Made by a program: the position numbers and the translations under genes. Shown here piece after piece: positions 12,921-58,777 of a DNA stretch of 64,000 bases (positions within the stretch are counted from its first letter, which is position 1; every line of letters begins with the position of its first letter). Where the stretch lies: positions 84,349-148,348 of the forward strand of contig JAFOOX010000053.1 in NCBI GenBank assembly GCA_017425245.1, in the 5' to 3' direction. The notes under the pieces were generated by a model. That model searched no databases. It was not told the origin of the DNA and was given only the letters and a program-made list of their open reading frames with translations. Source of the DNA: Gammaproteobacteria bacterium (GTDB lineage: Bacteria; Pseudomonadota; Gammaproteobacteria; Enterobacterales; Neiellaceae).

Positions 12921-12934
12921 TGAGGGCCACCGCA

Positions 12935-13924
12935 ATGACCGAGCATGCTACTGCTGCTATGAGTAACCAGCCGCAACAGGTGCAGCTGGTGTACGCCATG
13001 CCGTCACCGCAGCCAGACGACGAGATCGACCTCGGCCAGATCTGGGCGGCGCTGTGGGCCGGCAAATGGTGGATTATCCTCTCCTGCATGTTGGCGACTG
13101 TGGTTGCTGCTGCTATCGTTATCACAATGCCTAACATTTACCGGGCAAAGGTAGTTGTCGCGCCATCAGAGGAAGCCCAAGGTGGTGGACTTGGGGCTAT
13201 GGCTGGCCAGCTGGGCGGGTTGGCATCCTTGGCGGGAATAGACCTGAAAGGCAATAAAGTCGACAAAGCCGCTTATGCGCAGGAAGTAGTCAAGTCACGC
13301 GCGTTTGTTGTTGATTTCATCAAGCGTCATGAGCTGTTAGTGCCTTTAATGGCAGCGGAAGGGTGGCGGCCAGAGAGCGATACTCTAGTAATAAACGAAG
13401 ATATCTATGATGAAGTTTCACAGACTTGGGTACGTAAGGTCAAACCACCCCAAGCACCGAAACCGAGTGACTGGGAGGCGTTTGATGCGTTCCAGAAGAC
13501 TTATACCGTAATGCAAGATAAGCGGTCTGGCATGGTGACCATTAGCGTTGAACATTACAGCCCAACCCTTGCCGCCACATGGGCATCGCTGCTGGTAGCT
13601 GATATAAACAGCGCAATGCGCCAGGCCGATGTCAACGAGGCCAAACGTAGTATCGACTTTCTTAAAGAGCACCTCAACAAGACGAATGTGGCTGAGGTTC
13701 AAAAAATTTTCTATCAGTTGGTCGAACAGCAAACCAAAACCATCATGCTGGCTGAGGTTAGACCGGAATATGTATTTAAAACCGTCGACCCTGCAGTTGC
13801 GCCAGAAAAAATAGAAAAGCCAAAGCGTACTTTGATTGTGGCCCTCGCCACGATCGTGGGCGGCATGTTATCAACCCTCGTTGTACTTGTGCGTAGCTTC
13901 AGACAGAAGCCTGCCGGCATGTGA
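12935..13924 (+). CDS. wzz: Wzz-family polysaccharide co-polymerase (chain-length determinant)
   Basis: TM1 near the N-terminus (WWIILSCMLATVVAAAIVITM), a large periplasmic coiled region and a C-terminal TM (LIVALATIVGGMLSTLVVLV). ATG 12935 was chosen over the upstream overlapping start. Confidence 0.75.
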   Translation: MTEHATAAMSNQPQQVQLVYAMPSPQPDDEIDLGQIWAALWAGKWWIILSCMLATVVAAAIVITMPNIYRAKVVVAPSEEAQGGGLGAMAGQLGGLASLAGIDLKGNKVDKAAYAQEVVKSRAFVVDFIKRHELLVPLMAAEGWRPESDTLVINEDIYDEVSQTWVRKVKPPQAPKPSDWEAFDAFQKTYTVMQDKRSGMVTISVEHYSPTLAATWASLLVADINSAMRQADVNEAKRSIDFLKEHLNKTNVAEVQKIFYQLVEQQTKTIMLAEVRPEYVFKTVDPAVAPEKIEKPKRTLIVALATIVGGMLSTLVVLVRSFRQKPAGM

Positions 13925-32185: not shown

Positions 32186-33358
32186 CTAAATAACTGATCC
32201 CAACTCTGCTACACCTTGGCCATCGCGTGGCGGTTACCCGGGAAAGGCGAAGCCGTGCGTAGGAAGCGCTTCACTGCAACCAGCAGACTATCCAATGAGC
32301 GGTGCTGGTGGTTGCGGGTGACGGTGTCATGCATTGCTTTCCACAACCGCTCGATGCGGTTGACCCACGGGTGGTAGGCCGGCTGGAACAGGCAAACAAA
32401 CTGCGGATGACGCGCCAGCCAGGCAAAGGTTTCTCGGCTCTTGTGGATGATGTAGTTATCCAGCACTAGCGTGATGCGCTCCGCCTCCCGGTAGCGGCGC
32501 TTGAGCGCCTTCAGCAGGTCAATGAACAGCCCCGAGCATTTGCTGTCACCGTAACGGACGGTCACTTTCCCGGTGGTCGCGCACAGTGCGCCAGCCACGT
32601 AATGCTTGCGATTTTGCCCCGGTGTGGGAACGCGCTTCTGGGCACTGCGGCGCATCCAGTCGGCGCCGATGCGCGGGTTGAGATCGATGTCGGCCTCGTC
32701 GACGAACAACACCGGGTGGGTCGTGGATGCCTGCTTCAGCGCCTCGGCAATGTCTGCCAATTTCTGTTCTTTATCAGGTGCTTTGATGCAGAGCGTGGGG
32801 CATGCGCGGCGATAGACGATGCCAAATTCACGGAGCAGGCGCCGAATGGTTGATGGGTGAATGAAATCGCGGGCATGGTCGTGGATCACCTTGGCCATTA
32901 GCTCGGAACTCCAGCGGCTGCGCTGGTAATTCCAGTCTCGGGGCGATGTATCCACCAGGGCCAGCAAGAAGGTCGCGAGCTTGTCCCGGCACAACCTGCG
33001 CCGCCGTCCCGTTGTGCCATTGCGCAGTCCGTCCAGACCATCGGTGAGGAACCGCTGGCGCCAACGATTCACTGACGAGCGGGCCGCGCCTAACAGGCGA
33101 GCGATGGCGGAGACGCTGTGGCCCTTAACGAGCATGGCGATGGCTACCAGACGGCGATGCTCGTTGGCCGCTTTCACAATTCTGAGACGTCGGCAGAGAT
33201 CTGGGGAGAGGTCTTCTGGCAGTGCTGATAGCATGACGTGGGCTCGGCTTGATGGAGGGGTTGGTGTGGATTCGCAACCGATCTGATCGCCGAAATCAGG
33301 CCGAGTTCCCTCCCTCAAGTGATCTACTGTTCGGAACAGCTATTTAGAATGGCTTAAC
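32186..33358 (-). mobile_element. IS630-family (Tc1/mariner-like) insertion sequence, ~1.17 kb with imperfect ~19-bp TIRs (CTAAATARCTGWTCCSAAC), inserted inside the ISAs1 remnant
   Basis: Left end is ctaaataactgatcccaac. The reverse complement of the right end is ctaaatagctgttccgaac. It encloses one transposase gene. Confidence 0.75.
32209..33234 (-). CDS. IS630-family DDE transposase (342 aa)
   Basis: N-terminal HTH region (KGHSVSAIARLLGAARSSVNRWRQRF) and a DD(34)E-type catalytic region (VLFVDEADIDLNP .. LVLDNYIIHKS). ATG 33234 was chosen. Confidence 0.85.
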   Translation of the reverse strand: MLSALPEDLSPDLCRRLRIVKAANEHRRLVAIAMLVKGHSVSAIARLLGAARSSVNRWRQRFLTDGLDGLRNGTTGRRRRLCRDKLATFLLALVDTSPRDWNYQRSRWSSELMAKVIHDHARDFIHPSTIRRLLREFGIVYRRACPTLCIKAPDKEQKLADIAEALKQASTTHPVLFVDEADIDLNPRIGADWMRRSAQKRVPTPGQNRKHYVAGALCATTGKVTVRYGDSKCSGLFIDLLKALKRRYREAERITLVLDNYIIHKSRETFAWLARHPQFVCLFQPAYHPWVNRIERLWKAMHDTVTRNHQHRSLDSLLVAVKRFLRTASPFPGNRHAMAKV

Positions 33359-45858: not shown

Positions 45859-46572
45859 ATGGTGAAACTGGGCAAACGGCTGCAGGCACTGGATGCCATG
45901 GTGGTGGCAGGCTACGACCAGATCTGGGATGGCTGCTGTGACCACGGTTTGCTGGGGGCCGCGTTGCTGTCTCGCCGCGCTGCCCCGCTGATCCATTTTG
46001 TCGATCTGGTGCCGGCGCTGATGCAACAGCTGGCGCACCAGCTGCAGCGCCATTTCCCGCTGTCCGCTGCGGCCGCCGATGAGGGCGTTCAGCCGCGCTG
46101 GCAGGTTCATTGCTGCGATCTAACCAGCCTGCGTCTCGATGCTGCTGGTGGCCGTCAGCTGGTTATCATTGCCGGTGTTGGTGGTGATCTGATGGCGCGC
46201 ATGGTCGAGGGGCTGTGCCTGACGAACCCCAACCTCAGCTTTGATCTGCTGCTCTGCCCCGCTAACCACGCTTACAACCTGCGCGCCCAGTTGATCGCCC
46301 TCGGCCTTGGCCTGAAGCATGAACAACTGGTGGCCGATAACCGCCGTTACTACGAGCTGCTATTGCTCACCACCGAGCCGGGAGCTGGCCGCGCAGTGAG
46401 CCCGGCTGGTGACCAGCTGTGGCAGACCAGCAACCCCGAGCAGGCGGTCAACGCCGCCCGTTATCGTGAGCAGAGCCTGCGCCATTACCAGCGTATGCAG
46501 CTCAGCCAAGGCGAGCGGGTGCAACCGCAGATCGAGGCCTATCAGCGGGTGCAGCTGCCCTCGGAGATGTGA
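45859..46572 (+). CDS. Class I SAM-dependent methyltransferase, TrmK (tRNA m1A22)/COG2384-like
   Basis: N-terminal pattern LGKRLQALDAMVVAGYDQIWDGCCDHGLLGAALL resembles TrmK (KRL..A.......D.G.DHG.L). Confidence 0.5.
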   Translation: MVKLGKRLQALDAMVVAGYDQIWDGCCDHGLLGAALLSRRAAPLIHFVDLVPALMQQLAHQLQRHFPLSAAAADEGVQPRWQVHCCDLTSLRLDAAGGRQLVIIAGVGGDLMARMVEGLCLTNPNLSFDLLLCPANHAYNLRAQLIALGLGLKHEQLVADNRRYYELLLLTTEPGAGRAVSPAGDQLWQTSNPEQAVNAARYREQSLRHYQRMQLSQGERVQPQIEAYQRVQLPSEM

Positions 46573-46587
46573 GCATCTCGCCTGGGC

Positions 46588-47274
46588 TCAGGGCGCATGG
46601 CGGGCCCACAGGGTGTCGAATTCGCTGCGGAAGCTGGCCACCAGCTGCGGCTGGTCGGTTACCAGCAGATTTTCCTCATTGCTGGTGGTGGCGCTGCGAG
46701 TCCAGTTGAAGCTGCCGTTCAGCAGTAACCGCCGATCGAAGATGGCGAATTTGTGGTGCATGTGGAACGGGCTGTTGTCGACGCGCAGTGGCACCCCTCG
46801 TTCACGCAGCCACTGAATATCACTGCCATCGTCGTACAGTTTGTCGTTGTCGCTCAGCACCCGTATGGCGATCCCCCGTTGATGGCAGGCGAGGATCGCC
46901 TCGCTCAACTGATCGTCAGAGATGGTGTAAACGCAGATATCAACGCTGTGGCGCGCCTGCTGCAGCAGTTCACGGATCTTGCGGCGGCAGCTTTCACCGG
47001 GGCTGAAATGGGCGCTGGCGATCCCTTGGGGGGCGATGGTCGGGCTGCGGTCGAGGGTTTTGATCACCTGTTCCAGCCATTTCAGTGCCGCTTCGGCCTG
47101 CTCGGGCTGGCGCACCAGTTCGCGCACCAGGGCAAAGGCGCGGTTGCGCATAAAGCGCAACTGATCACTGGTCAGGTTGTCGCCCAATTGGCGCAGTTCA
47201 TCACGTTCATCATTGCTTAGCTTGAGATCGGCGAGGCTGTCACGCAGTTGCTGGTCGAGTTGATTGAAATCCAC
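46588..47274 (-). CDS. PLD-family (single HKD motif) phospholipase D/nuclease-like protein
   Basis: HKD motif HMHHKFAIFD..LLNGSFNWT. 228 aa, with the N-terminal ~75 aa helical. Last gene of the minus-strand operon. Confidence 0.75.
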   Translation of the reverse strand: MDFNQLDQQLRDSLADLKLSNDERDELRQLGDNLTSDQLRFMRNRAFALVRELVRQPEQAEAALKWLEQVIKTLDRSPTIAPQGIASAHFSPGESCRRKIRELLQQARHSVDICVYTISDDQLSEAILACHQRGIAIRVLSDNDKLYDDGSDIQWLRERGVPLRVDNSPFHMHHKFAIFDRRLLLNGSFNWTRSATTSNEENLLVTDQPQLVASFRSEFDTLWARHAP

Positions 47275-47285
47275 GATAGGCTCCG

Positions 47286-47864
47286 TTAATCGGGTTGTTG
47301 GCGCTGGCGCCCGGTGATGCCCGGGCGCGGGCCAAAGGCGGCATAAAGCCCACCACAGAGCGCGCCCGCCAGGTGGTACTCAAAGGAGATACCGGGTTGG
47401 CTGGGCAGCAGGCCAAAGATCCAGCCGCCATAGAAAAACAGCACCAGCGCGGCCAGCAGCAGATCGGTCAGCTGGCGGTGAAACCAGGCGCGCCCCAGCA
47501 GCAGCGCCCATAGCCCGAACAGCCAGCCGCTGGCGCCCACATGAATGCCGGGGCGACCGAGCAACCACACCAGCAGCCCGCTGCCGAGCACGATGGCGCC
47601 GCTGGCCAGCCAGAAATCGCGACGGCAGCGCAGCAGCAGCAAGCCGCCGAGGATCGCCAGCCCCATCAGATTACCGAGCAGATGGCCCCAGCTGCCATGC
47701 AGCCAGGGTGACAGCAGAATGCCAGCCAAGGCGGATGGCTGACGCGGCACCAGCCCCCACTGGTTGAGGCTGTAGCCGCTCAGGCTGTTGGCCAGCTGCA
47801 GCACCAGCATCAGTCCGGCGATGGCCAGCAGCAGGCGCACCTTGGTGGCAAGTGAGGCGATCAT
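47286..47864 (-). CDS. Rhomboid-family intramembrane serine protease
   Basis: Six TM segments, GxSG catalytic motif (GASGWLFGL) and a downstream His in a TM segment. 4-bp overlap with the upstream giant gene. Confidence 0.8.
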   Translation of the reverse strand: MIASLATKVRLLLAIAGLMLVLQLANSLSGYSLNQWGLVPRQPSALAGILLSPWLHGSWGHLLGNLMGLAILGGLLLLRCRRDFWLASGAIVLGSGLLVWLLGRPGIHVGASGWLFGLWALLLGRAWFHRQLTDLLLAALVLFFYGGWIFGLLPSQPGISFEYHLAGALCGGLYAAFGPRPGITGRQRQQPD

Positions 47865-50800
47865 CGCGGCTGACCATCGTCAGTGGCGCCGTTATCTGCT
47901 GCCACCGGTTCTGCGTCGCTCAACGCCGATGGTTCAGCGGCGTGACGGTCGCGCAGGCGGGCGGCCAGTTTCAGTAACCGATGATGGGCGCGCAGATCCA
48001 GATCTACTTTGCGCTCCAGGGTTTTGACCAGCGGCATAAAGCCCTGCTCAAGGCCGTTGGCCAGCTGCGCCAACAGCGGCACCAAGTCGGCCGGTGGAGC
48101 ACTGTTCACCGTCACCTGCGGCGTCTTGTGGGCGATCTTGGTCAGCCGCTCAAGCAGCTCTGACCAGGGGATTGGGTCGACGGCAGGGGCGGCCTCTGCC
48201 GGTTGCTGCAGCTGCTCGCCGATGGTGCGGACGCCGCCCACCAGATCGTGGAGCTGGGCGACCAGTTTGCTGCCGACATCGCTGTCGTCGCCACCCATCG
48301 CCTTGTTCCGCAGAAAGTCGCGTTTGATCTGGGCCCAGCGCTCTGCCTGTGGTGCGCTCATGGTGCCGCGCAGTTCCGCCAGTTTGAGCAGGTTTTCCTC
48401 GGCACCGGCGGTTAGCAGCTGCGATTCGCCCTGATAGTGGTCGCTGATCAGCTGCTGCAGTTCGGCATCGTTCATCACCGCCGAGATCTTTTCCGCCATC
48501 TTGTTCATGTTGCGGTAGCTGCCCTGCAACTTGAACGGCGGTTCGGTACGGTAACGGTCGGCCTGGGCGGCGCTGGCGATGTACTGCTGGTTGACCTTGA
48601 ACACCAGATCGCGCACCTGCATCAGTCGCTGCAAGGTGGTGACAATCTCATCGATCTCGGCGCTGCTGTAGTTGTGACTCAGTTCATTGGCCGAGAACGG
48701 CTTGCCCTCCGCCTTGGCCACCAGACGGTAGAGGTCGGCCATGTCGCGGGTGGCCAGCGGTGCCAGCACCGCATTGGAGGTGAGGGCGTTTTCGATATAG
48801 GAGAGGCGGAACGCCTCCTCCATGCCCCCCAGGGTATCGCCCAGGTTGTAGACATCGGCGCGGTTGGCCAGCATGTCCGGGATGCGGAACAGTTCGCCGC
48901 TCTCGGTGTAGGGGTTACCGGCCATCACCACGCAGAATTTTTTGCCGCGCATGTCATAGGTCTTGGTGCGCCCCTGCCACACCCCTTCAATGCGTCGGGT
49001 GCCGTCGCACAGCGAGATGAATTTCTGCAGAAATTCGGCATGGGTGTGCTGGATGTCATCGACATAGAGCATGACGTTGTTGCCCATCTCCAGCGCCAGG
49101 TTGAGCTTCTCCAGCTCCTGGCGTGAGGTGGCGTCCGGGGCTTGGGCCGGATCAAGCGAGCGCACCTCATGGCCCAGTGCCGGGCCGTTGATCTTCATGA
49201 AGATCAAGCCGAGACGGTGGGCCACATATTCCATCAAGGTGGTTTTGCCATAGCCGGGGGGCGAGATCAGCATCAGCAGCCCCATCAGGTCGCTACGCTT
49301 GCTGTCGCCGGCGCTGCCCATCTGTTTGGCCAGGTTGTCGCCAATCACCGCCAGATAGACATCGTTGATCAGCTTGTTGCGCACAAACGAGGTCAGTGGC
49401 CGTGGTTTGAACTCGCTCAGCCGCAACTGCTCGCGATGATGGCTGATCAGTTGCTGACGCAGCGCTTGGTATTGCTGCAACTGAGGCAGGAACTGCTGAC
49501 GATGGTGACGCAGACGGGCAAAGAGATCATCCACGGCCAGCTCCAGCTGCTGTTGCTGAATGCGCGGGTGGTCGCCCATCAGATCGCTGATGGTGAAGCG
49601 CAGATCGACGGTGCTGGTGCGTGCGGCATAGCCGTCTGGCAGCAGGGTCAGGGCTACTGCCTCAGGAATGTAGTGAGCGAGCGGTGCTAGTGCCGGATCG
49701 CTGCACAGTGCCCGCAACCAGTGGTCGACCAGCGCCCAGGCGGCGGCTAGCTGCCCCTGCAGCTGGCGCAGCGCCTGCTGGTAGCTGTCCCAGACCCGCG
49801 CTTGTTGCAGCCGGGCCTGCAGGGTGGTGACCAGCTCGCGCCCATAGTGGCTGAACACCATCGCGCCCGCGTCATTGGCCAGCGCCGCCAGCAGATAGTG
49901 CGCAGCAGCCTGCTGGCTGTCGTGATCAGTGGCGAGCTGGTGGGTGTCGACAAACTGGGTGATGGCCGCTTCCAGCTGTTGTTGCAGCGCGTTGAGCGCC
50001 TGACGTTGGCCAAACAGCTGCTGCATGTGATGGGCGGTACGCGCCTGTTCCGGCCAGTGGCGGCTGTCGCTGCGCTGCTGTTCGCAGTGCCAGAACAGCG
50101 CGGCCAGGGCGCGTGCCGTCGGGCTGTGGCAGAGCAGGCCGGCGGCGTCACGCAGCGGCAGCAGACGGCTGATGATCAGCGCGGCATCGTGATCGTGGAT
50201 CCCCTTCTGGTAACCCTCGCGGTAGCGCGGGGCGGCAAAGTCGCGCACCAGCCGGGTCAGGGCGTCGATATCGGCAGTCGCCGTGCGCAGGCTGTCGATG
50301 GTCAGGCCATCGCGCCCCTCGTCGGCCGCCGCCAGCAGTTCACCGGCCAGATATTCGGCGCGGTAGAGGCTGGGCGATTCCGATTCCAGCGACAGCTGCC
50401 AGAAGTCGCGCAGCGCCTCCAGCTGCGGCTCATGCACCGGCTCCAGATAGTCGGTGCCGGTGAGATGCAGACACAGCTGATCGCCCCGTGGCAGCAGGGT
50501 CAGATCCAGCTCCTGGGTGTTGACGCTGAAACGGTGGCGCGGACCGAGACGGATAACATTGCCGCCCGCTTCGAACAGTTCACTCTTGTCACGCAGAGCC
50601 CGTACCGCCTGATCGCGCGCCCCTTTGAGGCGGGCTTCGATGTCGTCGGCTTTGACGCTGTCGTGCAGCTCGCGCAAGCGCGCCGTCAACTCACGTAACT
50701 TCAGGATCAGCGGATCGGCGGCAAAGAAGGCGTTGAGCTCGGCCATCTCGGTCAGCCGTTCGGTACGGCGGCCAAGGCTGTCGAGAATGCGCTTGGCGGC

Positions 50801-53146
50801 GTCATGCAGGCTGCCGGCCCGACGTTGGCGCTCATCCATCAACTGCTGTTTGTGGGCCTCGAAGGTTTCAACCAGCTCATCACGCTTGGCCAGAATGTCG
50901 CCCAGAAACTGTTCATGGTCGCCGAACTGGCCTTCCAGTTCCTCCAGTTGCACCAGCAGCCGCGACAGTTGTTCATCGCAGCTTTCCGGGCTGGTGGCCA
51001 GTGCCAGCGCGTTGGTGATGCCCTGGCTGAACAGCTTGAACTGGGCGCCGAACTGGGCCACGGTCTCGGCCGAGCCCAGCCCTTTGCGGCGTTGTTCGGC
51101 CCGCGCCTTGGCCTGGTTGAGGCGGGCATAAACTTCCGAGATCCCCTCCACGATGCGGGTGCGCTGGGTGGCATCATCAATCGGCAGCGATGCCATCAGC
51201 GTCGACAGCATGTCGAGGTCGGCCGCCATCGCCGCCAGCGCCTGCAGCGGTTCGTTGAGCTGGCTGACGCTTTGCGCCGCTTGCGCCTGAGTGTCCAGTT
51301 GCTGCAGGCGGGTAACCAGCGGGGCTAAGGCAGCATCGCTGGCCAGATAAGCCGAAGTGGCGGTTGACAGCTGCTGGTGAGCATCGACCAGCGCCTGTCC
51401 CATGGCGTCGATGCGGGCGACATCAATGTAACGGTAGTCGCGAATGGTTAGCAGCAAGCCGCGCTGGGCGGTGATGGCGTTGAGGTCGTCCACATAGTGC
51501 TGAACGCTGTCGCGGCTGGCGCTGCCGAGTCGGTCCAGCAACGTCTGCTGGCGCTGCTCAGCGTCGCGCATGGCGGCGGCGGACTGCTGGCGGATGCTCT
51601 CTACTTTTTCGAACTCGTCCAGCACCCGTTCGCCGCTGGCGGTGATCTCGCGCAGCAGCGGCGCCAGCCCGTCACACTCCGGATCGGTGAGCCAGTGATA
51701 GTGGTCGAACAGCTTGCGAGTGTTTTGGCACAGCAGCGTGTAACGGGCGACCGATACGTCACGGCCGTCGATATCACGGCAGAGGTTGAGCAGCTCTGAC
51801 AGCCCGCGTACCAGCTCGGCGTTGCTGACCCGGCCGAAAAAGCCGCTACGGCTGGGCTGGCGGGCGGCAAATTCATCGCTGTAGAACGGGGTCTGCCAGA
51901 TCTGCATCGGGTGGATGCGGGTCGGTTCGGTGCCCTCGGCCGCAAAGATCACCATGCGGCCATCTTCAAGGCGGGCAAAGCCGTGGCCAACCAGCGGGTT
52001 ATGCAGTTGACGATTGATCAGGTTGTAGGTGAAAAGCGCCGAACGGCCCTCTTCCGGGTGGTAGAAGACGTATTGCACATCTTCACCGTTGGGTGAGCGC
52101 AGGGTGCGCTTGAAGCGCATGCCGGTCATCGGCAGGTCGAACTGCTTGTACTCACCACTTTGCAGGTAGTAGCCACCGGGGAAGATGATGCCGTGGTCTT
52201 CCGGCAGCTGAACGCAGGCCTGGCCGATGGCGTCGATGCGCACCACCTGCCGGGTCAGGCCGTTGTAGACCAGATGGCGCCATTGCTCTTCGCGGTAGGG
52301 GAGGATGCGCAGCAGGATGAGGCTACCGAGCCGGGCATATTCGATCTGGGCATCGTCCAGCGATTGGGTCAGATCCTGCACCGCTTCGCGGTAGATCCCC
52401 TGGCCATCCTGGGTGTTGTTCTCAATCTTGACTGTCAGGTCGCCGCCCACGGTTTCAACAAAGACAGTGTCGAGAATATTGATGTGGGGGTGGCGGCCGT
52501 TGACCACCTGTTCACGGCCAGTCTTTTGCCATTCGAAATCGTAGGGAGCGGGCAGCGCGATGTCGCGCTCACCGCGATTGTCGATGTAGCGGATCTCGCC
52601 ATTGAGGGCGATCGACCAGCGGAACACCCGGATGTCACTGATCCGCTCGCCAATCTGGAAGCTGGCCAGCAGCTTGCCGTCGCGCACCACCAGCTGTAGC
52701 AGCCGGGTATTTTTGTAGTAGGTGTAGAGCTCGCGGAAGTCGTTCACGAAGCTCGGTTGATCAAGAAAACTGCCGGCCAGCGGCTGCGCTTCCGCCTCGT
52801 AGCCTTCGGCCTGTTCCACCAGTCGATAGAGGGAGAACACATCCTCGATGCGTGTCTCTTTTTTCAGCCCCAGAAAGACGTTGTAGCCGAACAGCAGGGT
52901 ATCGCCGACGCGCACGATGTCGCGGGCGCTGCAGTTGTTTTCGGTGCGGATCCGCACCCGGCCGATCACGGCCATCTGGCTGCTGCCAAAGGCGTCCAGC
53001 CGCTTCTGGTTCAGCCCGTCAGCCAGCTGGCGCAGGCGCAGCCCCTGCTCCTGCAGGCGCTTGCGCAGCACCTCATAGGCGCCGCCAGCAGCAACGGCCT
53101 GGTCGACAAGTTCCTCGGGCTGGGTGGCGTGGCTATCCGACATCAT
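47861..53146 (-). CDS. Giant (1761-aa) protein with a ~1250-aa largely helical/coiled N-terminal region and an internal AAA+ ATPase core. Walker A GYGKT is near residue 1297 and Walker B (hhhhDD) is VMLYVDDIQ.
   Basis: Single uninterrupted ORF with operon-consistent codon usage. P-loop LISPPGYGKTTLMEYV, Walker B MLYVDDIQ and sensor-like VVMAGNP. No N-terminal Walker A, so not SMC/RecN-like. Confidence 0.85.
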   Translation of the reverse strand: MMSDSHATQPEELVDQAVAAGGAYEVLRKRLQEQGLRLRQLADGLNQKRLDAFGSSQMAVIGRVRIRTENNCSARDIVRVGDTLLFGYNVFLGLKKETRIEDVFSLYRLVEQAEGYEAEAQPLAGSFLDQPSFVNDFRELYTYYKNTRLLQLVVRDGKLLASFQIGERISDIRVFRWSIALNGEIRYIDNRGERDIALPAPYDFEWQKTGREQVVNGRHPHINILDTVFVETVGGDLTVKIENNTQDGQGIYREAVQDLTQSLDDAQIEYARLGSLILLRILPYREEQWRHLVYNGLTRQVVRIDAIGQACVQLPEDHGIIFPGGYYLQSGEYKQFDLPMTGMRFKRTLRSPNGEDVQYVFYHPEEGRSALFTYNLINRQLHNPLVGHGFARLEDGRMVIFAAEGTEPTRIHPMQIWQTPFYSDEFAARQPSRSGFFGRVSNAELVRGLSELLNLCRDIDGRDVSVARYTLLCQNTRKLFDHYHWLTDPECDGLAPLLREITASGERVLDEFEKVESIRQQSAAAMRDAEQRQQTLLDRLGSASRDSVQHYVDDLNAITAQRGLLLTIRDYRYIDVARIDAMGQALVDAHQQLSTATSAYLASDAALAPLVTRLQQLDTQAQAAQSVSQLNEPLQALAAMAADLDMLSTLMASLPIDDATQRTRIVEGISEVYARLNQAKARAEQRRKGLGSAETVAQFGAQFKLFSQGITNALALATSPESCDEQLSRLLVQLEELEGQFGDHEQFLGDILAKRDELVETFEAHKQQLMDERQRRAGSLHDAAKRILDSLGRRTERLTEMAELNAFFAADPLILKLRELTARLRELHDSVKADDIEARLKGARDQAVRALRDKSELFEAGGNVIRLGPRHRFSVNTQELDLTLLPRGDQLCLHLTGTDYLEPVHEPQLEALRDFWQLSLESESPSLYRAEYLAGELLAAADEGRDGLTIDSLRTATADIDALTRLVRDFAAPRYREGYQKGIHDHDAALIISRLLPLRDAAGLLCHSPTARALAALFWHCEQQRSDSRHWPEQARTAHHMQQLFGQRQALNALQQQLEAAITQFVDTHQLATDHDSQQAAAHYLLAALANDAGAMVFSHYGRELVTTLQARLQQARVWDSYQQALRQLQGQLAAAWALVDHWLRALCSDPALAPLAHYIPEAVALTLLPDGYAARTSTVDLRFTISDLMGDHPRIQQQQLELAVDDLFARLRHHRQQFLPQLQQYQALRQQLISHHREQLRLSEFKPRPLTSFVRNKLINDVYLAVIGDNLAKQMGSAGDSKRSDLMGLLMLISPPGYGKTTLMEYVAHRLGLIFMKINGPALGHEVRSLDPAQAPDATSRQELEKLNLALEMGNNVMLYVDDIQHTHAEFLQKFISLCDGTRRIEGVWQGRTKTYDMRGKKFCVVMAGNPYTESGELFRIPDMLANRADVYNLGDTLGGMEEAFRLSYIENALTSNAVLAPLATRDMADLYRLVAKAEGKPFSANELSHNYSSAEIDEIVTTLQRLMQVRDLVFKVNQQYIASAAQADRYRTEPPFKLQGSYRNMNKMAEKISAVMNDAELQQLISDHYQGESQLLTAGAEENLLKLAELRGTMSAPQAERWAQIKRDFLRNKAMGGDDSDVGSKLVAQLHDLVGGVRTIGEQLQQPAEAAPAVDPIPWSELLERLTKIAHKTPQVTVNSAPPADLVPLLAQLANGLEQGFMPLVKTLERKVDLDLRAHHRLLKLAARLRDRHAAEPSALSDAEPVAADNGATDDGQPR

Positions 53147-53244
53147 GGTCTTCCTGAAGTTGCGGCAGCATCAATGGTGGCCCGACATGGGCCAGCCAGC
53201 TCAGAGTCGACCGGCACCTGCGCAGGTGCCGGTCTGTGGGTCGG

Positions 53245-55275
53245 TCAGAGCGCGCCGCCCTGATCGCCGGCCGTTTGGCTGGCGCCGGCCTTGCCGGTCA
53301 GGAAGCGGGCAACGATGTCCTGCACCACCGGGCTTTTGCCCACCACCCCTTCGATCGCCTTGCCCACCGACAGCGACTTGGCAAAGGAGTTAAAGAAGTC
53401 CCCTTCGCCACCGACGATCTCGATCTTGGCTTTGGCCAGCGCGGCAGAGAGCACTTCGGCCTGATCCTTGGCGATCTCTTTGTTGGCGGCGATGGCGGCC
53501 ATCGCCTCGTCGAAGCTCTTTTCCAGCTGCATGCGGAACTCTTCGTGCGCGCGGGCGTTGTCGCTGAGGGTATCGAGCGCGCCAAATTTCTTGGCCAGAC
53601 CTTCCGCTTCGGCGTTCAGACGCTGCAGCAGGATCTGCGCTTCGGCGCTGCCCAGATCCTGGGTGGCCTGGGCTTTGGCATGGCCGAGCTGCTCTTCGCC
53701 ACGGGCCTGGGCACTGAGCTTCTCTTCCAGCACTTTGGCTTCCGCCAGCCCCTCTTTTTCACGGGCGACGGCCTGGGCTTCAATGATGCGGGCTTGAGCG
53801 ACCCCTTTCTCCTGCTCGCCTTTGGCTTCGGCGATCAGCAGCTCCGCCTTGACGCGTGCCTCGGCCAAGCCTTCCTTCTCTTTGGCCAGCGCTGTGACTT
53901 CGCGGACACGCGCATCGGCCAGCCCGGGCGCGGCACGTTCGGCCTCGATCCCTTCGGCCATCCGCTTCTTGGCTTCGGCATCCTTGGCTGCCGCTTCCAG
54001 CTCGGCCTGGGCCAGGGTGTTGATCTCGGCGGCTTTGTGCTTCGACTTGGTTTCGTCGGCTTCGGCTTGTTTGACCTGGCGTACCAGCTCCTGCTCGGCC
54101 TCCGCCTGGGCGTTGATGATCGCCACCTGCTTGCTGCGGTCCGCTTCCGATACTTCGCGCACCTCTTTGATCCGCTCTTCTTCCTGGGCAACGGTCTTTT
54201 CTACTGCCACCCGCTCGCGGATCACGGCGGCGATGTTCTTGCGCTCCACTTCCAGCGCCTTTTCTTTCTCGATCCGCTGCAGTTCGACTTCACGCTCGCG
54301 TGAGACAACCTCCAGCTCTTTGGCGCGGGTAACTTTTTCCACCTCAATAACCACTGCCCGTTGGCGGTTTTGCTGGGCCACTTCCACTTCGCGCTGATGG
54401 TTTTCGGCGCGGATATCCAGCTCCTGCTGGGTCTGGATGCGGGCCTGCTCGGCCTTCAGCCGTTCTTCCTCTTGCACCTTGAGGGTCTCGGCCTGCTCAC
54501 GCGCCTGAATGGTCTCGATTTCGCGCTTCTGGCGCGCTTCGGCATCGGCTTGCTGGCGTTCCAGCGCCAGTGTCGCTTCGCGCGTTTCGACGTTTTTCTT
54601 CTTGATCGCCAGCTCTTCGTTACGCTCCAGCTCGTTGGTGATGACGTTCTGGGCCGCAGTCAGCTCGGTGATCTTGCGAATCCCCTCGGCGTCGAGAATG
54701 TTGGTCGGATCGAGGGAGTTTTTGGGGGTTTGCTCAAGGTAATCGATGGCGACATCTTCCAGCACATAACCGTTGAGATCGTTGCCGATCACCTCGACGA
54801 TGCGGTCGCGGAAGCTCTGGCGCTCTTCAAACAGCTGCACAAAGTCGAAGCGCTTGCCGACGGTTTTCAGCGCCTCAGAGAACTTGGCGTTAAACAGCTC
54901 GTTGACTGCGCCGCGATCGGAGGCCCGTTCGGCACCGATCGCCTTGGCTACTTTGAGCACATCCTGCTGGGTTTCGTTGACCCGCAGGTAGAAGGCCACA
55001 GTGATGTCGGCGCGCAGGTTGTCGCGGCAGATCAGGCCATCCTTGCCGCGGCGGTCGATCTCCAGGGTGATCAGGGAGATCTGCATGAACTCCTTCTTGT
55101 AGATCACCGGGTAGACCAAAGCGCCGGTAAAGTGGACCTTGGGCTGGGTCGACATGTCGTTGACGATCAGCGCGGTACCCTGTGGCACCTTGATGTAGAA
55201 GGCTTTGAACAGGGCGAAAAAGCCGAACAGGAGCAGAAAAAACAGCCCCAGACCCATCAGGAATGGCATCACCAT
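53245..55275 (-). CDS. Flotillin-family SPFH/Band-7 protein (YqiK-like) with an extended Ala/Glu/Lys-rich coiled-coil
   Basis: N-terminal TM followed by an SPFH domain (..VPQGTALIVNDMS.., ..ITLEIDRRGKDG..), then a long EA-rich heptad region typical of flotillins. 676 aa from ATG 55275. Confidence 0.85.
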   Translation of the reverse strand: MVMPFLMGLGLFFLLLFGFFALFKAFYIKVPQGTALIVNDMSTQPKVHFTGALVYPVIYKKEFMQISLITLEIDRRGKDGLICRDNLRADITVAFYLRVNETQQDVLKVAKAIGAERASDRGAVNELFNAKFSEALKTVGKRFDFVQLFEERQSFRDRIVEVIGNDLNGYVLEDVAIDYLEQTPKNSLDPTNILDAEGIRKITELTAAQNVITNELERNEELAIKKKNVETREATLALERQQADAEARQKREIETIQAREQAETLKVQEEERLKAEQARIQTQQELDIRAENHQREVEVAQQNRQRAVVIEVEKVTRAKELEVVSREREVELQRIEKEKALEVERKNIAAVIRERVAVEKTVAQEEERIKEVREVSEADRSKQVAIINAQAEAEQELVRQVKQAEADETKSKHKAAEINTLAQAELEAAAKDAEAKKRMAEGIEAERAAPGLADARVREVTALAKEKEGLAEARVKAELLIAEAKGEQEKGVAQARIIEAQAVAREKEGLAEAKVLEEKLSAQARGEEQLGHAKAQATQDLGSAEAQILLQRLNAEAEGLAKKFGALDTLSDNARAHEEFRMQLEKSFDEAMAAIAANKEIAKDQAEVLSAALAKAKIEIVGGEGDFFNSFAKSLSVGKAIEGVVGKSPVVQDIVARFLTGKAGASQTAGDQGGAL

Positions 55276-55386
55276 TTCAAGACTTATCACTCTCAATCTC
55301 CTTTGATTTGCGCGGGTCAACCACTGGCCCGGCCATGATCAGAACAACATTCCGTTATGGCGCTGGCAGGCAACGCCGGTGCAGTC

Positions 55387-56031
55387 TTAGCTGCCGTTAA
55401 ACTCTGCTTCTGTCACCACCCGATAGGCGTGTTCATCGGCCAGATACTCCAGTAGCACCACCCGGTCGCCACGCTTGAGGGCTAGCCCGTCATCTGCGCG
55501 GATCCGCAGGATCAGCCCGGCACCACCATCGTTGAAATCGGCCTCGCCATGGCGGGTGCTGACCGAACTACTGCGCACTATGGCTATCTGGCCAATGATC
55601 GAGCGGCTGTCAGTGGCCTGTAGCTTGTGAAACAACGGGCGTAACGGCCTGACCAGCACCCGGGCCGGTGCTGCAGCCAGCAGCAGGCTGGCCGGGATCA
55701 GCAGCAGGCCGAGGGGGTAGCGCAGGATGCCAAGCGGCAGCCAGCGCAGCAGTAGCAACTCGGCGAAGTAGCAGAGGATCCAGGCAAAGAAGAACAGCAG
55801 GGTGAGCACCAGCGTCACCGGCACGCCATTGAGCCCCAGCTTCATCAGCAGACCGGCCAGACCTTCTGGCTGCAGGCTGTCACCTTCCAGTGCTGAATCG
55901 ACCTCGATATCCAACAGCTCAACCTCGACCAGCCCTAAGGCTGCAACCAGCCAGTAGAGGATGGCGATGCACAGCAAAAAGCTGAGCACCACCACCGGAA
56001 AGGCCATCGAGGTTTGCAGAAATAGTTCCAT
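55387..56031 (-). CDS. NfeD-like membrane protein (YqiJ-like) with a C-terminal OB-fold
   Basis: Multi-TM N-terminal half and a soluble C-terminal beta-rich domain (..GQIAIVRSSSV..GGAGLILRIRADDG..GDRVVLLEY). It is the canonical partner gene of flotillins. Confidence 0.7.
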   Translation of the reverse strand: MELFLQTSMAFPVVVLSFLLCIAILYWLVAALGLVEVELLDIEVDSALEGDSLQPEGLAGLLMKLGLNGVPVTLVLTLLFFFAWILCYFAELLLLRWLPLGILRYPLGLLLIPASLLLAAAPARVLVRPLRPLFHKLQATDSRSIIGQIAIVRSSSVSTRHGEADFNDGGAGLILRIRADDGLALKRGDRVVLLEYLADEHAYRVVTEAEFNGS

Positions 56032-56085
56032 GACTGATATCCGTCTGCTCTGCGTTTGCAGGCGTGGCCGGGCCCCGCCCATCCG

Positions 56086-56781
56086 TTACCCCTGCTTGCG
56101 CGCCTTCAGCCGGGCCAGCACGCTGTCGGCAGCGGCACTGTCGGACACGATCCCGGCTGCCCGCAATTTAACGTCCAGCTGGTCGTCCGGGGTACTGGTG
56201 GCGGCTAGTTCAGCCGCAGCTTCCATGCGCGCGCCGCGTTCGGCCTGCTTTTGTTTGATCCTCTCCAGCGACTCTACTGCGGTGTGCAGGCTGGCCTGCG
56301 AGCCGCCATGGCGTTGGGCCACCGCCTGCTGTGCTTTCTGCACGCTTTCAGTGGCTTTGACCGTATCTACCTGCTGCTTCAGCCGTTTGATGTTGCCTTC
56401 CGCTTGGGTGACCGCTTTGCGCAGCTGGGCGACGCTGGCGGCAAAGGCTTCCGCTTGCTCCCGTTCACTGGCCTGCTCGTTCTCAAGGGCGGCGATCTTC
56501 TCGGCTACCTCATGGGCCAGCGTTTCATCGCCGCTGTCCAGCGCCTTGATGGCGTACTGCTCATATTCGGCAATGCGGGCGCTGCACTTGTTTACCCGTT
56601 CATCTGCCAGTTTCTGTTTGGCCATGATGCCCGCCAGCGCCTCTTTGGCTTGGCGCAGTTCTTCGTCGGCATCGCGGATCTCCTGGTCGAGAATGCGCAG
56701 CGCCTGGCTGTCGACCATGGCTTCACCCACTTCATTGGCGCCGCCACGCAACGCCGTCAGCATTTTGCTCCACACGTTCAT
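56086..56781 (-). CDS. PspA/IM30 (Vipp1/ESCRT-III superfamily) protein, YjfJ-like
   Basis: 231-aa all-helical coiled-coil protein with a PspA_IM30-like N-terminus (MNVWSKMLTALRGGANEVGEAMVD..). Confidence 0.8.
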   Translation of the reverse strand: MNVWSKMLTALRGGANEVGEAMVDSQALRILDQEIRDADEELRQAKEALAGIMAKQKLADERVNKCSARIAEYEQYAIKALDSGDETLAHEVAEKIAALENEQASEREQAEAFAASVAQLRKAVTQAEGNIKRLKQQVDTVKATESVQKAQQAVAQRHGGSQASLHTAVESLERIKQKQAERGARMEAAAELAATSTPDDQLDVKLRAAGIVSDSAAADSVLARLKARKQG

Positions 56782-56794
56782 TGCATCTCTCCTG

Positions 56795-57415
56795 TCAGAT
56801 ACTGGCCTTGAGGAAGTTCTCGTAGGCCTCGGTCGCCTTGATCACGTTGTCGGCCAGCAGCTCAATTTCAAACACCACATCGCTGAGGGTCGAGGCCGAG
56901 CTGAGGGCGCCAAACATGCTGTAGTAATCCTGGCCGTCGGCCCGCTGCTCCAACCCGATGGAGGAGAGCGGGAACAGCTTGTGGCTGCGTAGCACCTCGT
57001 CATTGAAGCGGGCGCTGTCAGTGACAGCTGACGCTGGCCACAGCATCGCTTCAACGACGATCTGCTCGCCGTAAACGCCCATGAACAGCGGCAGGTCGCC
57101 GTAGTCATGCATGGTCAGGTGGAGGCTGGCATCAGCCCCCTGAATCAGTTCAAGGCTGGCTTGACCGCTGCTGATCAGTTCGGTGCCGGCCAAGGCGCTG
57201 CACAGGGTCTGTGCGGTCCAGATGGGCGTCATGCTCATTGCCTCCGTCATCTCCGGTGACACCAGCCCGGTTCGCGGCTGGCGTAGTTTGCGCTCAAGCG
57301 CCAGCAGGTGGCCGGCATGCTCGGGCAGGATCCAGACCTCTTTCTTGACCAGCCCCTGCTCACGCAGACGTTGGCGATAAAGGCGCTGGTAATGTGCTGA
57401 TGATTTTGTGTCCAT
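56795..57415 (-). CDS. YjfI-like (DUF2170-type) cytoplasmic protein, tentative; first gene of the operon
   Basis: Its position immediately upstream of a PspA-family gene mirrors E. coli yjfI-yjfJ. The family assignment is from memory, not computed. The track ORF begins at TTG 57451; ATG 57415 is preferred. Confidence 0.4.
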   Translation of the reverse strand: MDTKSSAHYQRLYRQRLREQGLVKKEVWILPEHAGHLLALERKLRQPRTGLVSPEMTEAMSMTPIWTAQTLCSALAGTELISSGQASLELIQGADASLHLTMHDYGDLPLFMGVYGEQIVVEAMLWPASAVTDSARFNDEVLRSHKLFPLSSIGLEQRADGQDYYSMFGALSSASTLSDVVFEIELLADNVIKATEAYENFLKASI

Positions 57416-57429
57416 GTGCAGCAGCCTAG

Positions 57430-57467
57430 TTGTTACATGTGATGCTGTCAATTGGTTACATGTGATG
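57430..57467. promoter_or_regulatory. Two direct copies of GTTACATGTGATG (each with a palindromic ACATGT core), 22 bp apart, overlapping the region just upstream of the operon start codon
   Basis: ttgttacatgtgatg at 57430-57444 and ttggttacatgtgatg at 57452-57467, read directly from the sequence. Confidence 0.45.
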
Positions 57468-58006
57468 TTTTTTGTGTCGGCATAGACAGCCGTCCACGCC
57501 AGTTGCTGAGCGACAATTCGCCACAGCGGCTGCCAGCCTGAGCTGTGCGCTGATAAGGGGGGAATAACGAGGCGATGACAGGCGTGGTCATGGAGTCACA
57601 TCCTTGTGCTCATTGTAGCTGGCGGCCTTGCCAAGAGAGCGGAGCGCCATGATGCCACAGCGATCAGCTTTGGTCATCGCTTAATCGGTAACGGTGTCTG
57701 CCGGATCACAAGATCTGCGTCACCAGCGCTGAGGCTGCACGGGTGATGGTGCATGGCGCGCGGCGCTCTTGGTGCGAACGAGCGGGGGGCTTGCCCCCGC
57801 GCTATGAAATTCTGAGCCATGGCAGTGAGCTGCTCAGCGGTCACTGGCACAGCCTTTGAGTAGCGTCCCCCAGAGTCAGTGCGGTATTGCTACCGGCTGG
57901 CAGGGCACAGGCGCTCAATCGACGCGGTTTTACCGCTGGAGATTGGGCGCTTTTTTTATGCCCGCTTGTCAGCCAAAGCGGTCATGAACAGAGCCCGCCA
58001 GTGCCA

Positions 58007-58777
58007 TCAGAAGTGCGACTTGAGGATCAGGCTGAACACGCTTTGGTCGGTGTTGAAGGCCTTGCTATCCTTGACGCCGTACTTGTTCGACCAGTAGCTG
58101 TACTCGGTGCCGACCAGCACACGCTTGGCTTTCCAGCCGATCGCCTTGCTGACGTCATATTTAAGCTGCGGGTTGAAGTGCAGGTTGCTCTTGTAGCTGC
58201 CGTCGCTGTCGACGTTCCAGTCGATAAAGCCGTCAAAGATGATGTCTGAGTTGCCTGCCGGGAAGGTCATGGACCATACCGGGGTGATCTGGATGGTTTC
58301 GCCATCACGGCCATCACGCGGGAAGCGCTTGTAGACATTGAGCTGGAAGAAATCGAAGCCCGGGATCTTGAGGTCGAAGCCGGGGCCGACCAGCAGGGTT
58401 TCAACATCGCCTTCACCGAACTCATAGGTGGTGGCCAGCAGCACATCGCTGAACAGCGGGCCTTTGAACTCGGCATTGAAGATTTTGCCAATCGACAGAC
58501 GCGGGCTGAATTCGCCGTAGTAAGCGGAGTCGCCAGTCAGGAAATCTTCCTGGCCGTTGAACTCGGCGTAGTCAACGAAGGTGAAGAGGTCACCGAAAGC
58601 CCAGCCGCTGGCATGCTCGAAGGTGACAGTCTGCTGGATCGGCGGGTTGACCGCGTAGTTGGTGCCGTAGAGGTAGCTCAGGCTGGTGTCGGTCCAGTGC
58701 AGCAGGCCATCGGCAGCAACCGGGGTGGCGAGCAGGGCAGCGGAGAGGGCAAGGGCGCTAGCGTGTTTGTAGTTCAT
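58007..58777 (-). CDS. tsx: Nucleoside-specific outer-membrane channel Tsx/OmpK family
   Basis: Signal peptide (MNYKHASALALSAALLATPVAA) and a Tsx-like beta-barrel sequence ending in the aromatic residue F. Confidence 0.85.
   Translation of the reverse strand: MNYKHASALALSAALLATPVAADGLLHWTDTSLSYLYGTNYAVNPPIQQTVTFEHASGWAFGDLFTFVDYAEFNGQEDFLTGDSAYYGEFSPRLSIGKIFNAEFKGPLFSDVLLATTYEFGEGDVETLLVGPGFDLKIPGFDFFQLNVYKRFPRDGRDGETIQITPVWSMTFPAGNSDIIFDGFIDWNVDSDGSYKSNLHFNPQLKYDVSKAIGWKAKRVLVGTEYSYWSNKYGVKDSKAFNTDQSVFSLILKSHF

Follow-up and report, generated by a model that had tools for sequence, protein, structure and literature searches.

The window analysed here is a stretch of 64,000 nucleotides (positions 84,349 to 148,348 of contig JAFOOX010000053.1, assembly GCA_017425245.1) from a gammaproteobacterium of the Neiellaceae, and its minus strand carries the gene for a giant ATPase of ~195 kDa that directly follows genes for a short NfeD/YqiJ-like membrane protein and a flotillin-like protein. 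An earlier note on this DNA, made from the letters alone, had read the giant's gene as one uninterrupted open reading frame (ORF) of 1761 amino acids (aa) at 47861-53146, and the ORF list and the translation bear this out. Our analysis identifies the giant, with near certainty, as the ortholog of Pseudomonas aeruginosa PA3728 (BacE), and its gene closes the core of a conserved cassette in the order short NfeD/YqiJ, flotillin, giant. In the list of the gene and its immediate neighbours that follows, counts of loci refer to the best 80 of at least 564 confirmed loci, in which counterparts of the window's genes were located by tblastn.

56795..57451, minus strand: YjfI/DUF2170 protein (CesT/Tir-like chaperone fold), ortholog of PA3732/BacA; Pfam E 3e-50; 39 of 80 loci (PMC11237479; PMC10948618)
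56086..56781, minus strand: PspA/IM30 (ESCRT-III superfamily), ortholog of PA3731/BacB; Pfam E 5e-55; 40 of 80 loci
55387..56082, minus strand: short NfeD/YqiJ-like membrane protein, 231 aa, ortholog of PA3730/BacC; transmembrane segments; 74 of 80 loci
53245..55320, minus strand: flotillin-like SPFH protein, 691 aa, ortholog of PA3729/BacD/PaFlo3; translation, transmembrane segments, Band_7, gene loci (PMC13086221)
47861..53146, minus strand: giant ATPase ORF, 1761 aa plus stop codon, ortholog of P. aeruginosa PA3728/BacE; ORF list, translation, homologues
47286..47864, minus strand: small rhomboid intramembrane protease, 192 aa, accessory; Pfam E 1e-18, GASG and His motifs in the translation; 14 of 80 loci
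46588..47274, minus strand: single-HKD protein of the phospholipase D (PLD) family, ortholog of PA3727/BacF, accessory; Pfam PLDc_2 E 3e-30; 19 of 80 loci

The flotillin gene lies directly upstream of the giant gene and in the same direction in 78 of the 80 loci, that is, in every one that includes upstream DNA, the other two beginning inside the giant gene. An NfeD/YqiJ-like gene precedes flotillin in 74 loci, and the misses are due to contig ends or, in locus L078, to upstream DNA of 848 nt; the order is the same in every informative locus. The triad also occurs in a planctomycete, an acidobacterium, a Streptomyces plasmid and Hymenobacter, i.e., in Planctomycetota, Acidobacteriota, Actinomycetota and Bacteroidota, and in Hymenobacter a gene annotated as "chaperone Tir" and PspA stand upstream of it. 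The link to a membrane module drawn in the earlier note thus holds genetically, in five further phyla as well. The same note had placed the giant between flotillin and a rhomboid protease, which is correct for the window; as a partner, the rhomboid is not conserved (14 of 80 loci). PspA is missing from all six sampled loci of the Myxococcota type, from most Xanthomonadales and from the loci of Planctomycetota, Acidobacteriota and Streptomyces; flotillin and NfeD are kept in all of these. Gaps between genes in the window range from a 4-nt overlap to ~100 nt, as would fit a single operon reaching from YjfI (57451) to PLD (46588); the rhomboid start overlaps the stop codon of the giant by 4 nt (ATGA), and the rhomboid is translationally coupled to the giant.

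In P. aeruginosa, the locus runs DUF2170, PspA, a 213-aa protein, a 688-aa protein, the giant with 1746 aa, PLD, YaeQ, RecJ and elastase (lasB), an order which identifies the giant as PA3728 (BacE) and the PLD protein as PA3727 (BacF) of bacABCDEF. This "biofilm-associated cluster" is co-transcribed, as one transcript was found by reverse-transcription PCR (PMC10948618). It shares with the window the Pfam architecture of the giant (PA3728/PA14_16190) and the order DUF2170-PspA-NfeD-flotillin-giant-PLD, and differs in that the window has an additional rhomboid gene between giant and PLD. Functional work on the P. aeruginosa operon is confined to mutants of bacA and bacB and a deletion of paFlo3. 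Mutation of PA3731 impairs biofilm formation, swarming, virulence and the production of rhamnolipids, and osmotic shock induces the gene (PMC2587700). In one study, every phage-infected sample showed up-regulation of PA3728-PA3732 (PMC12041424), which was also seen in an unrelated proteome study (PMC13637947), and PA3728 recurs among the mutated genes of cystic-fibrosis isolates (PMC8190622). Ravi et al. (2024; PMC11237479, section 19) described the same operon, with its YqiJ/YuaF-type protein and an optional HKD phospholipase D; they dealt with the architecture of the ATPase in one sentence, noted abbreviated flotillin-YqiJ(-ATPase) operons and suggested ATP-dependent, ESCRT-like remodelling, so that the module as such has been predicted before. 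That work assigns no AAA clade and gives neither a domain map nor statistics; here, the order propeller, helical bundles, AAA is resolved, and NfeD-flotillin-ATPase, not PspA, emerges as the invariant core.

The giant has more than 6000 homologues in at least seven bacterial phyla, as judged by protein search. Among the 120 listed for it, one is an identical metagenome entry and the remaining 119 share 65-76% identity at a query coverage of 93-99%, with the exception of P0068 (coverage 64%); the P. aeruginosa homologue P0031 is 72% identical over 98% of the giant's length. Starting from a deltaproteobacterial homologue of 45% identity, a further search retrieved full-length relatives from Myxococcota, Acidobacteriota and Planctomycetota, and a plasmid search added homologues from Deinococcus, Hymenobacter, Streptomyces and Nonomuraea. 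Pfam recognizes DUF3686 at residues 38-484 (677.8 bits, cutoff 25, E 7e-204) and DUF7902 at residues 606-688 (94.3 bits, cutoff 26), and these matches, its full-length collinear similarity to the homologues and its place directly downstream of flotillin and NfeD/YqiJ genes make the protein a member of the DUF3686-DUF7902-AAA+ family of the BacE/PA3728 type. A fusion of two genes or an internal frameshift, which the earlier note had named as a possible refutation, is excluded because all 80 loci give a single continuous match, at 45-75% identity, over residues ~2-1733. The same note had called the architecture unusual. This was overstated, given that Pfam models for DUF3686 and DUF7902 exist, that the family is described in PMC11237479 and that BacE has its place in the bac operon (PMC10948618): the giant belongs to a known, named family. 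A literature search for "DUF3686" found nothing. Mobile elements were considered as carriers of the giant and rejected: phage genomes yielded no homologue, and among 72,556 plasmid records just 13 did, mostly megaplasmids or chromids.

For a domain map, residues 1-1200 were modelled with AlphaFold from an alignment of 100 sequences with 39-75% identity (model mefc090593efa, mean predicted local distance difference test (pLDDT) score 88.5), and residues 1101-1761 were modelled with a mean pLDDT of 83.7. Conservation of the AAA module was assessed over 100 homologues from several phyla with 46-74% identity in the C-terminal region. The resulting elements, from the N- to the C-terminus, are:

52988..53119, minus strand: two N-terminal helices, residues 10-53; AlphaFold model
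51893..52972, minus strand: predicted beta-propeller, residues 59-418, core of DUF3686; Pfam, AlphaFold, Foldseek
50576..51877, minus strand: long-helix region, residues 424-857, including DUF7902 (606-688)
50435..50557, minus strand: small beta domain, residues 864-904; model and conservation (66% mean identity)
49637..50362, minus strand: second helical domain, residues 929-1170; model and weak conservation (36% identity)
49427..49624, minus strand: linker to the ATPase module, two short strands and a long helix, residues 1175-1240; models
48707..49411, minus strand: AAA+ module, residues 1246-1480, with pre-helix, alpha/beta core 1290-1434, pre-sensor-1 beta-hairpin 1385-1398 and lid 1435-1480
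49241..49264, minus strand: Walker A SPPGYGKT, residues 1295-1302; motif scan, translation, invariant in the alignment
49055..49072, minus strand: Walker B MLYVDD, residues 1359-1364, Asp-Asp pair invariant; motif scan, alignment, translation
48860..48916, minus strand: sensor-1 Asn1411 through candidate arginine finger Arg1429 (NPYTESGELFRIPDMLANR); alignment, translation
48197..48706, minus strand: conserved post-lid helical region, residues 1481-1650; model, conservation, search of representative proteins reaching to ~1650
47864..48196, minus strand: variable C-terminal tail, residues 1651-1761, with a single long helix ahead of a disordered end rich in Ala, Asp and Pro

Where the earlier note had seen ~1250 aa of helical or coiled-coil sequence ahead of the ATPase core, Pfam, AlphaFold and Foldseek place DUF3686, ~26 beta strands at residues 59-418 and the small beta domain at 864-904. 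The ~26 strands, with a pLDDT mostly above 90, form six or seven blades of a predicted propeller, for which Foldseek returned the WD40 protein Ski8, the propellers of prolyl oligopeptidase and of a trilobed protease, and paraoxonase. For the N-terminal 1200 residues as a whole, the top matches (E 3e-7 to 7e-7) come from IFT-A and the nuclear pore; these proteins combine propeller and solenoid, and their TM-scores of 0.07-0.09 mean that domain types alone are common to both. In region 424-857, helices of 26-58 residues connected by short loops are modelled as antiparallel, spectrin-repeat-like bundles. Heptad-like stretches were limited to residues 22-49, ~490-844, 1035-1065 and 1619-1659 in a crude home-made heuristic scan that is to be read qualitatively. 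The linker comprises strands 1183-1187 and 1200-1204 and a helix at 1205-1240 in the 1101-1761 model, and a strand at 1175-1178 in the 1-1200 model. No stretch of the giant reaches transmembrane hydrophobicity, as had been noted earlier, which marks it as a soluble protein of the cytoplasm, and the model of the C-terminal ~300 aa consists of helices only. The tail has a pLDDT of ~50-75 along its helix and ~35 in the last 25 residues (1737-1761), a mean identity of 17% and gaps at 25% of positions. Mean identity is 60% for the propeller, 36% for the second helical domain and, with the maximum for the whole protein, 84% across phyla for the alpha/beta core of the AAA module.

The nucleotide-binding motifs named in the earlier note were all recovered. 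SPPGYGKT is the sole P-loop in 1761 aa, there is no Walker A motif at the N-terminus, and MLYVDD, its one Walker-B-like motif in an AAA context, is followed by the sensor-like GNP at 1410-1412. Residues S1295-T1302, D1363, D1364, N1411, R1429 and R1467 are invariant in the 100 homologues, and as aligned sequence the set of AAA motifs is far beyond chance. In the model, strand 1 (1290-1294) leads into the P-loop, strand 3 (1358-1363) carries Walker B, and strand 4 (1404-1410) ends at Asn1411, the sensor-1 residue; the pre-sensor-1 hairpin, with strands 1385-1390 and 1393-1398, is inserted between helix 3 and strand 4. A helix at 1424-1429 ends at Arg1429, is followed by strand 5 (1431-1434) and leads to a helical lid that extends to ~1480. 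R1429 is taken as the candidate arginine finger because it closes helix 4 ahead of strand 5. Walker A and B, a polar sensor-1 residue, a candidate arginine finger and an alpha/beta core with helical lid, all features of the AAA+ superfamily, are therefore present, and the module is apparently catalytic and highly constrained. When residues 1241-1761 were compared with 1.84 billion representative proteins, 924 matches with E <= 1e-3 were obtained; the strong ones lie at about position 1200-1650 in proteins of 1600-2000 residues, or in fragments, so that the AAA and C-terminal module is confined to the architecture of the giant.

By structural comparison, the closest relatives of the module are the MoxR ATPases CbbQ and NorQ, followed by midasin, and Pfam AAA_5 scores 25.8 bits against a cutoff of 22, with AAA also just above its cutoff. 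HMMER searches of all PDB chains with the protein, the 100-sequence family profile and the AAA domain alone returned p97, NVL and RuvB over the Walker-A region only, with E 1e-5 or weaker, and hence neither settle the class of the module nor reveal a solved relative. A beta-hairpin insert in helix 2 is the defining feature of the MoxR clade (PMC13036017). In the giant, the corresponding region is predicted with high pLDDT as strand 2 (1315-1320), a short helix, a highly conserved 14-residue loop (1325-1338) and helix 2, with no beta-hairpin, and VWA domains were found neither in the operon genes or their flanks nor among the recurrent downstream families of the 80 loci, of which those of PLD, rhomboid and TelA were identified. 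Since the model shows no clear hairpin in helix 2 and no VWA partner is encoded in the operon, we describe the module as MoxR-like in its predicted fold and do not file it as a member of the MoxR family. The giant shares with CbbQ, NorQ and RavA the modelled pre-sensor-1 beta-hairpin, but it also differs from them in a Walker B that reads DD instead of DE, in ~1250 additional N-terminal and ~280 additional C-terminal residues, and in a sequence similarity that HMMER does not detect against the PDB.

As modelled, the AAA module belongs to a ring-forming structural group. The dynein- or midasin-like logic that had been proposed earlier is not supported, as those proteins have six AAA modules per chain and the giant has one; no second alpha/beta P-loop domain is seen in the model of residues 1-1200, and the MIDAS domain, stalk, linker and microtubule-binding elements of midasin (Rea1) and dynein were not detected. 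With a single module per chain, the giant would need to oligomerise as MoxR proteins do. Vps4-type proteins, with an N-terminal MIT domain and a classical AAA module that has no pre-sensor-1 hairpin, are likewise of a different build. The giant shares with Vps4/ESCRT-III and with PspF/PspA the genetic coupling of an AAA+ ATPase to an ESCRT-III-superfamily protein at the membrane. SPFH scaffold, AAA+ protein and rhomboid come together in the window as they do, in various combinations, in HflK/C-FtsH, SLP2-PARL-YME1L (PMC10818064) and erlin-RHBDL4-p97 (10.1101/848754). This likeness is one of system logic: the giant has no protease domain and no membrane anchor, and the rhomboid is found in a minority of loci.

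We propose that the single AAA+ module would assemble into a ring, most likely a hexamer by analogy with its nearest structural relatives CbbQ and NorQ. Such a hexamer would be a cytoplasmic machine of ~1.2 MDa with six long arms and a propeller at each tip. Propellers and helical arms could bind to the cytoplasmic cage of flotillin and NfeD and, where PspA is present, also to its polymers at the stressed inner membrane, and ATP turnover in the ring might then remodel the scaffold during envelope stress, be it by assembly, disassembly or release of trapped clients, in analogy to Vps4 acting on ESCRT-III or FtsH inside the HflK/C cage. PLD, rhomboid, TelA and GDPD (glycerophosphodiester phosphodiesterase; see below for the latter two) would be additions of particular lineages, with membrane lipids or proteins as their targets. 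Because flotillin and NfeD are the invariant partners and PspA is not, we favour the flotillin cage as the primary partner of the giant. The combined statement that the giant is the BacE ortholog and a hexameric AAA+ remodeller of a flotillin/PspA membrane-stress scaffold seems to us slightly more probable than its opposite, the mechanistic part taken by itself standing at well under even odds. The most specific version, a missing ATP-driven remodeller of membrane-repair scaffolds in the form of a hexameric ring with six propeller-tipped, spectrin-like arms that opens, disassembles or recycles flotillin/NfeD cages and PspA polymers, is put forward tentatively and with more doubt than belief.

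A number of observations weigh against the remodeller proposal. The position of the catalytic Walker B residue, usually a Glu, is taken by Asp in 100 of 100 homologues, and the invariant Asp-Asp pair may point to slow, switch-like or regulated hydrolysis instead of a motor. A canonical aromatic pore loop is not present in the AAA module, so that threading of substrates is not indicated. PspA is not an obligatory substrate, because half of the loci are devoid of it. The paFlo3 deletion reduced biofilm formation by only ~20% and caused no strong stress phenotype (PMC13086221). Our literature search found no experiment on the giant ATPase of any family member, be it on interaction, oligomeric state or ATPase activity, and no paper that ties MoxR-type ATPases to SPFH proteins. 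The most distant members of the family, finally, are represented in the gene-context survey by five extra look-ups.

Other functions have been weighed against the same evidence. The giant could be a disassembly ATPase dedicated to PspA, the bacterial ESCRT-III, and so the counterpart of Vps4, flotillin and NfeD serving as a membrane platform only. This would agree with PspA and YjfI being encoded co-directionally and immediately upstream in 40 and 39 of the 80 loci, and in Bacteroidota as well, with the suggestion of ESCRT-like ATP-dependent remodelling (PMC11237479) and with the apparent absence of a Vps4-like ATPase from bacteria (PMC7619361). We consider it unlikely, given that half of the loci lack PspA yet retain flotillin and NfeD, that no MIT-like domain was detected in the giant and that its fold is not that of Vps4. 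The resemblance to CbbQ and NorQ and the AAA_5 match would also suit a MoxR-type maturation chaperone that inserts cofactors into, or assembles, a membrane enzyme complex in the manner of NorQ/NorD, CbbQ/CbbO and RavA/ViaA. However, a VWA/MIDAS partner was not found in the operon, the model lacks the helix-2-insert beta-hairpin required by PMC13036017, the neighbourhood offers no conserved candidate client enzyme and MoxR proteins have ~300 and not 1700 residues, all of which makes such a role improbable. Equally improbable in our view is a giant that acts mainly as a coat-like scaffold of propeller and helical repeats, with the AAA+ module as a nucleotide-controlled assembly switch and not a working motor. 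The IFT-A and nuclear-pore proteins at the top of the Foldseek results, the Asp-Asp Walker B with its hint of slow hydrolysis and the missing aromatic pore loop speak for it; the low TM-scores of these very matches speak against it, as does the AAA core, which is the most conserved part of the protein, sensor-1 and arginine-finger candidates included, and whose extreme conservation argues for catalysis under selection.

The induction of PA3728-PA3732 in all phage-infected samples (PMC12041424), and the relationship of the PLD protein to the nucleases Nuc and Zucchini, raise the question of an anti-phage or abortive-infection system in which PLD would be the effector nuclease and the ATPase a sensor or motor. 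Induction by phage is, however, equally expected of a phage-shock response to membrane stress, and PADLOC gave no match for the giant, flotillin, the NfeD-like protein, rhomboid or YjfI and mere coiled-coil noise for PspA, in a scan that did not extend to PLD. Moreover, the locus is chromosomal and syntenic in several phyla, is absent from phages and rare on plasmids (13 of 72,556), and PLD is part of only 19 of 80 loci, so that we think a defence function very improbable. Hardly credible at all is the DNA repair ATPase of SMC/SbcC/RecN type announced by inherited database names, i.e., "ATPase involved in DNA repair" for Pfam DUF3686 and "DNA repair ATPase" at NCBI, the latter borne by most of the 120 listed homologues (JGI sometimes prefers "MoxR-like ATPase" or even "soluble cytochrome b562"). 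Apart from these names, there is a weak match of RuvB type, limited to the Walker A region (E 4e-4 to 6e-3). SMC, RecN and SbcC are ABC-type proteins with a split head (Walker A at the N-terminus, Walker B and signature at the C-terminus) and one long antiparallel coiled coil, and share with the giant its large size, helical stretches and the database name. The giant has one internal AAA+ P-loop, neither an N-terminal Walker A nor an ABC signature, an AAA+ and not an ABC fold, helices arranged in separate bundles and no Pfam or NCBIfam match to SMC, AAA_23 or ABC. A conserved partner in DNA metabolism is missing too, recJ of the P. aeruginosa locus being found neither in the window nor at other loci. 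The earlier note was right to argue against this class, and the "DNA repair" label carried by thousands of entries is unsupported here.

Should the remodeller proposal be correct, the giant would be a functional bacterial counterpart of Vps4 built from a MoxR-like, not a classical, AAA module. According to a 2025 review, a Vps4-like ATPase appears to be absent in bacteria (PMC7619361), and the giant therefore deserves testing as a candidate. Flotillin/SPFH cages and PspA/ESCRT-III polymers are structurally understood, while their assembly, opening and recycling in bacteria are not, and the giant family, fixed beside flotillin and NfeD at all informative loci sampled and endowed with a conserved ATPase core, is a strong genomic candidate for the energy-consuming partner. 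It occurs in a tractable pathogen, P. aeruginosa, where phage and osmotic stress raise expression of the operon, which also influences biofilm formation and virulence, and the domain map together with the invariant residues K1301, D1363/D1364, N1411 and R1429 supplies ready-made mutants. Thousands of "DNA repair ATPase" annotations need changing.

As to the neighbouring genes, the flotillin-like protein has a transmembrane hairpin (residues 9-46), a divergent SPFH domain and a long coiled coil rich in Glu, Ala and Lys. Its N-terminal 261 aa match Band_7 with 22.8 bits, just below the cutoff of 23.6, and the whole protein has neither a Pfam match nor a sequence match in the PDB; the assignment is based on this sub-threshold match, on homologues with a recorded Band_7 match and on the literature. 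Its true start is probably the Met at ~55275 (MVMPF...), the listed TTG start being ~15 codons too long. The NfeD/YqiJ-like protein has three to four transmembrane segments and, at its C-terminus, a soluble domain; PA14_16160 figures in the literature as a short NfeD (PMC13086221), and the Hymenobacter counterpart is annotated as DUF1449. For the rhomboid, the rhombosortase model gives 25.8 bits, far below its threshold of 84. The closest solved sequence to PLD is the mitochondrial cardiolipin hydrolase MitoPLD/Zucchini (E 2e-33), as compared with E 3e-14 for the bacterial endonuclease Nuc. At the planctomycete locus L081, a 123-aa ORF comes after the giant and then, at 12465-13403, GDPD, another lipid-headgroup hydrolase, at the position of PLD. 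In 14 Xanthomonadales loci (L014-L019, L021, L025-L028, L035, L036 and L057), a gene for the toxic anion resistance protein TelA (Pfam E 2e-68) lies downstream of the giant after one ORF, at a distance of ~0.7-1.1 kb; PspA is missing from 11 of these 14, which hints that TelA may take the place of PspA in this order. The YjfI/DUF2170 protein has an N-terminal extension of ~75 residues ahead of its Pfam domain (78-214), and tblastn matches of ~200-210 residues in other Pseudomonas loci suggest that much of this extension is common.

A sigma-54 (RpoN) site has been reported upstream of PA3732 in P. aeruginosa (PMC2587700; PMC10948618). It was not confirmed in the window, where the pattern TGGCAC-N5-TTGCW with up to two mismatches showed no excess over chance and did not occur on the correct strand upstream of the operon (57452-58006). 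A scan of 46000-58200 for sigma-70 promoters and terminators was uninformative, with no promoter-like sites and with terminator-like sites at background level. At some distance from the operon, positions 14000-38000 of the window are low in GC (0.43-0.49, as against 0.60-0.65 in the flanks), apart from 32-34 kb (0.58), where an IS630-type DDE_3 transposase is encoded (32209-33318, minus strand). This block carries a polysaccharide or O-antigen-type cluster with an initiating glycosyltransferase family 4 enzyme, a Polysacc_synt flippase, a heparinase II/III-like protein, a GT4 glycosyltransferase, UDP-glucose dehydrogenase and GDP-mannose 4,6-dehydratase, and it is probably a horizontally exchanged serotype locus.

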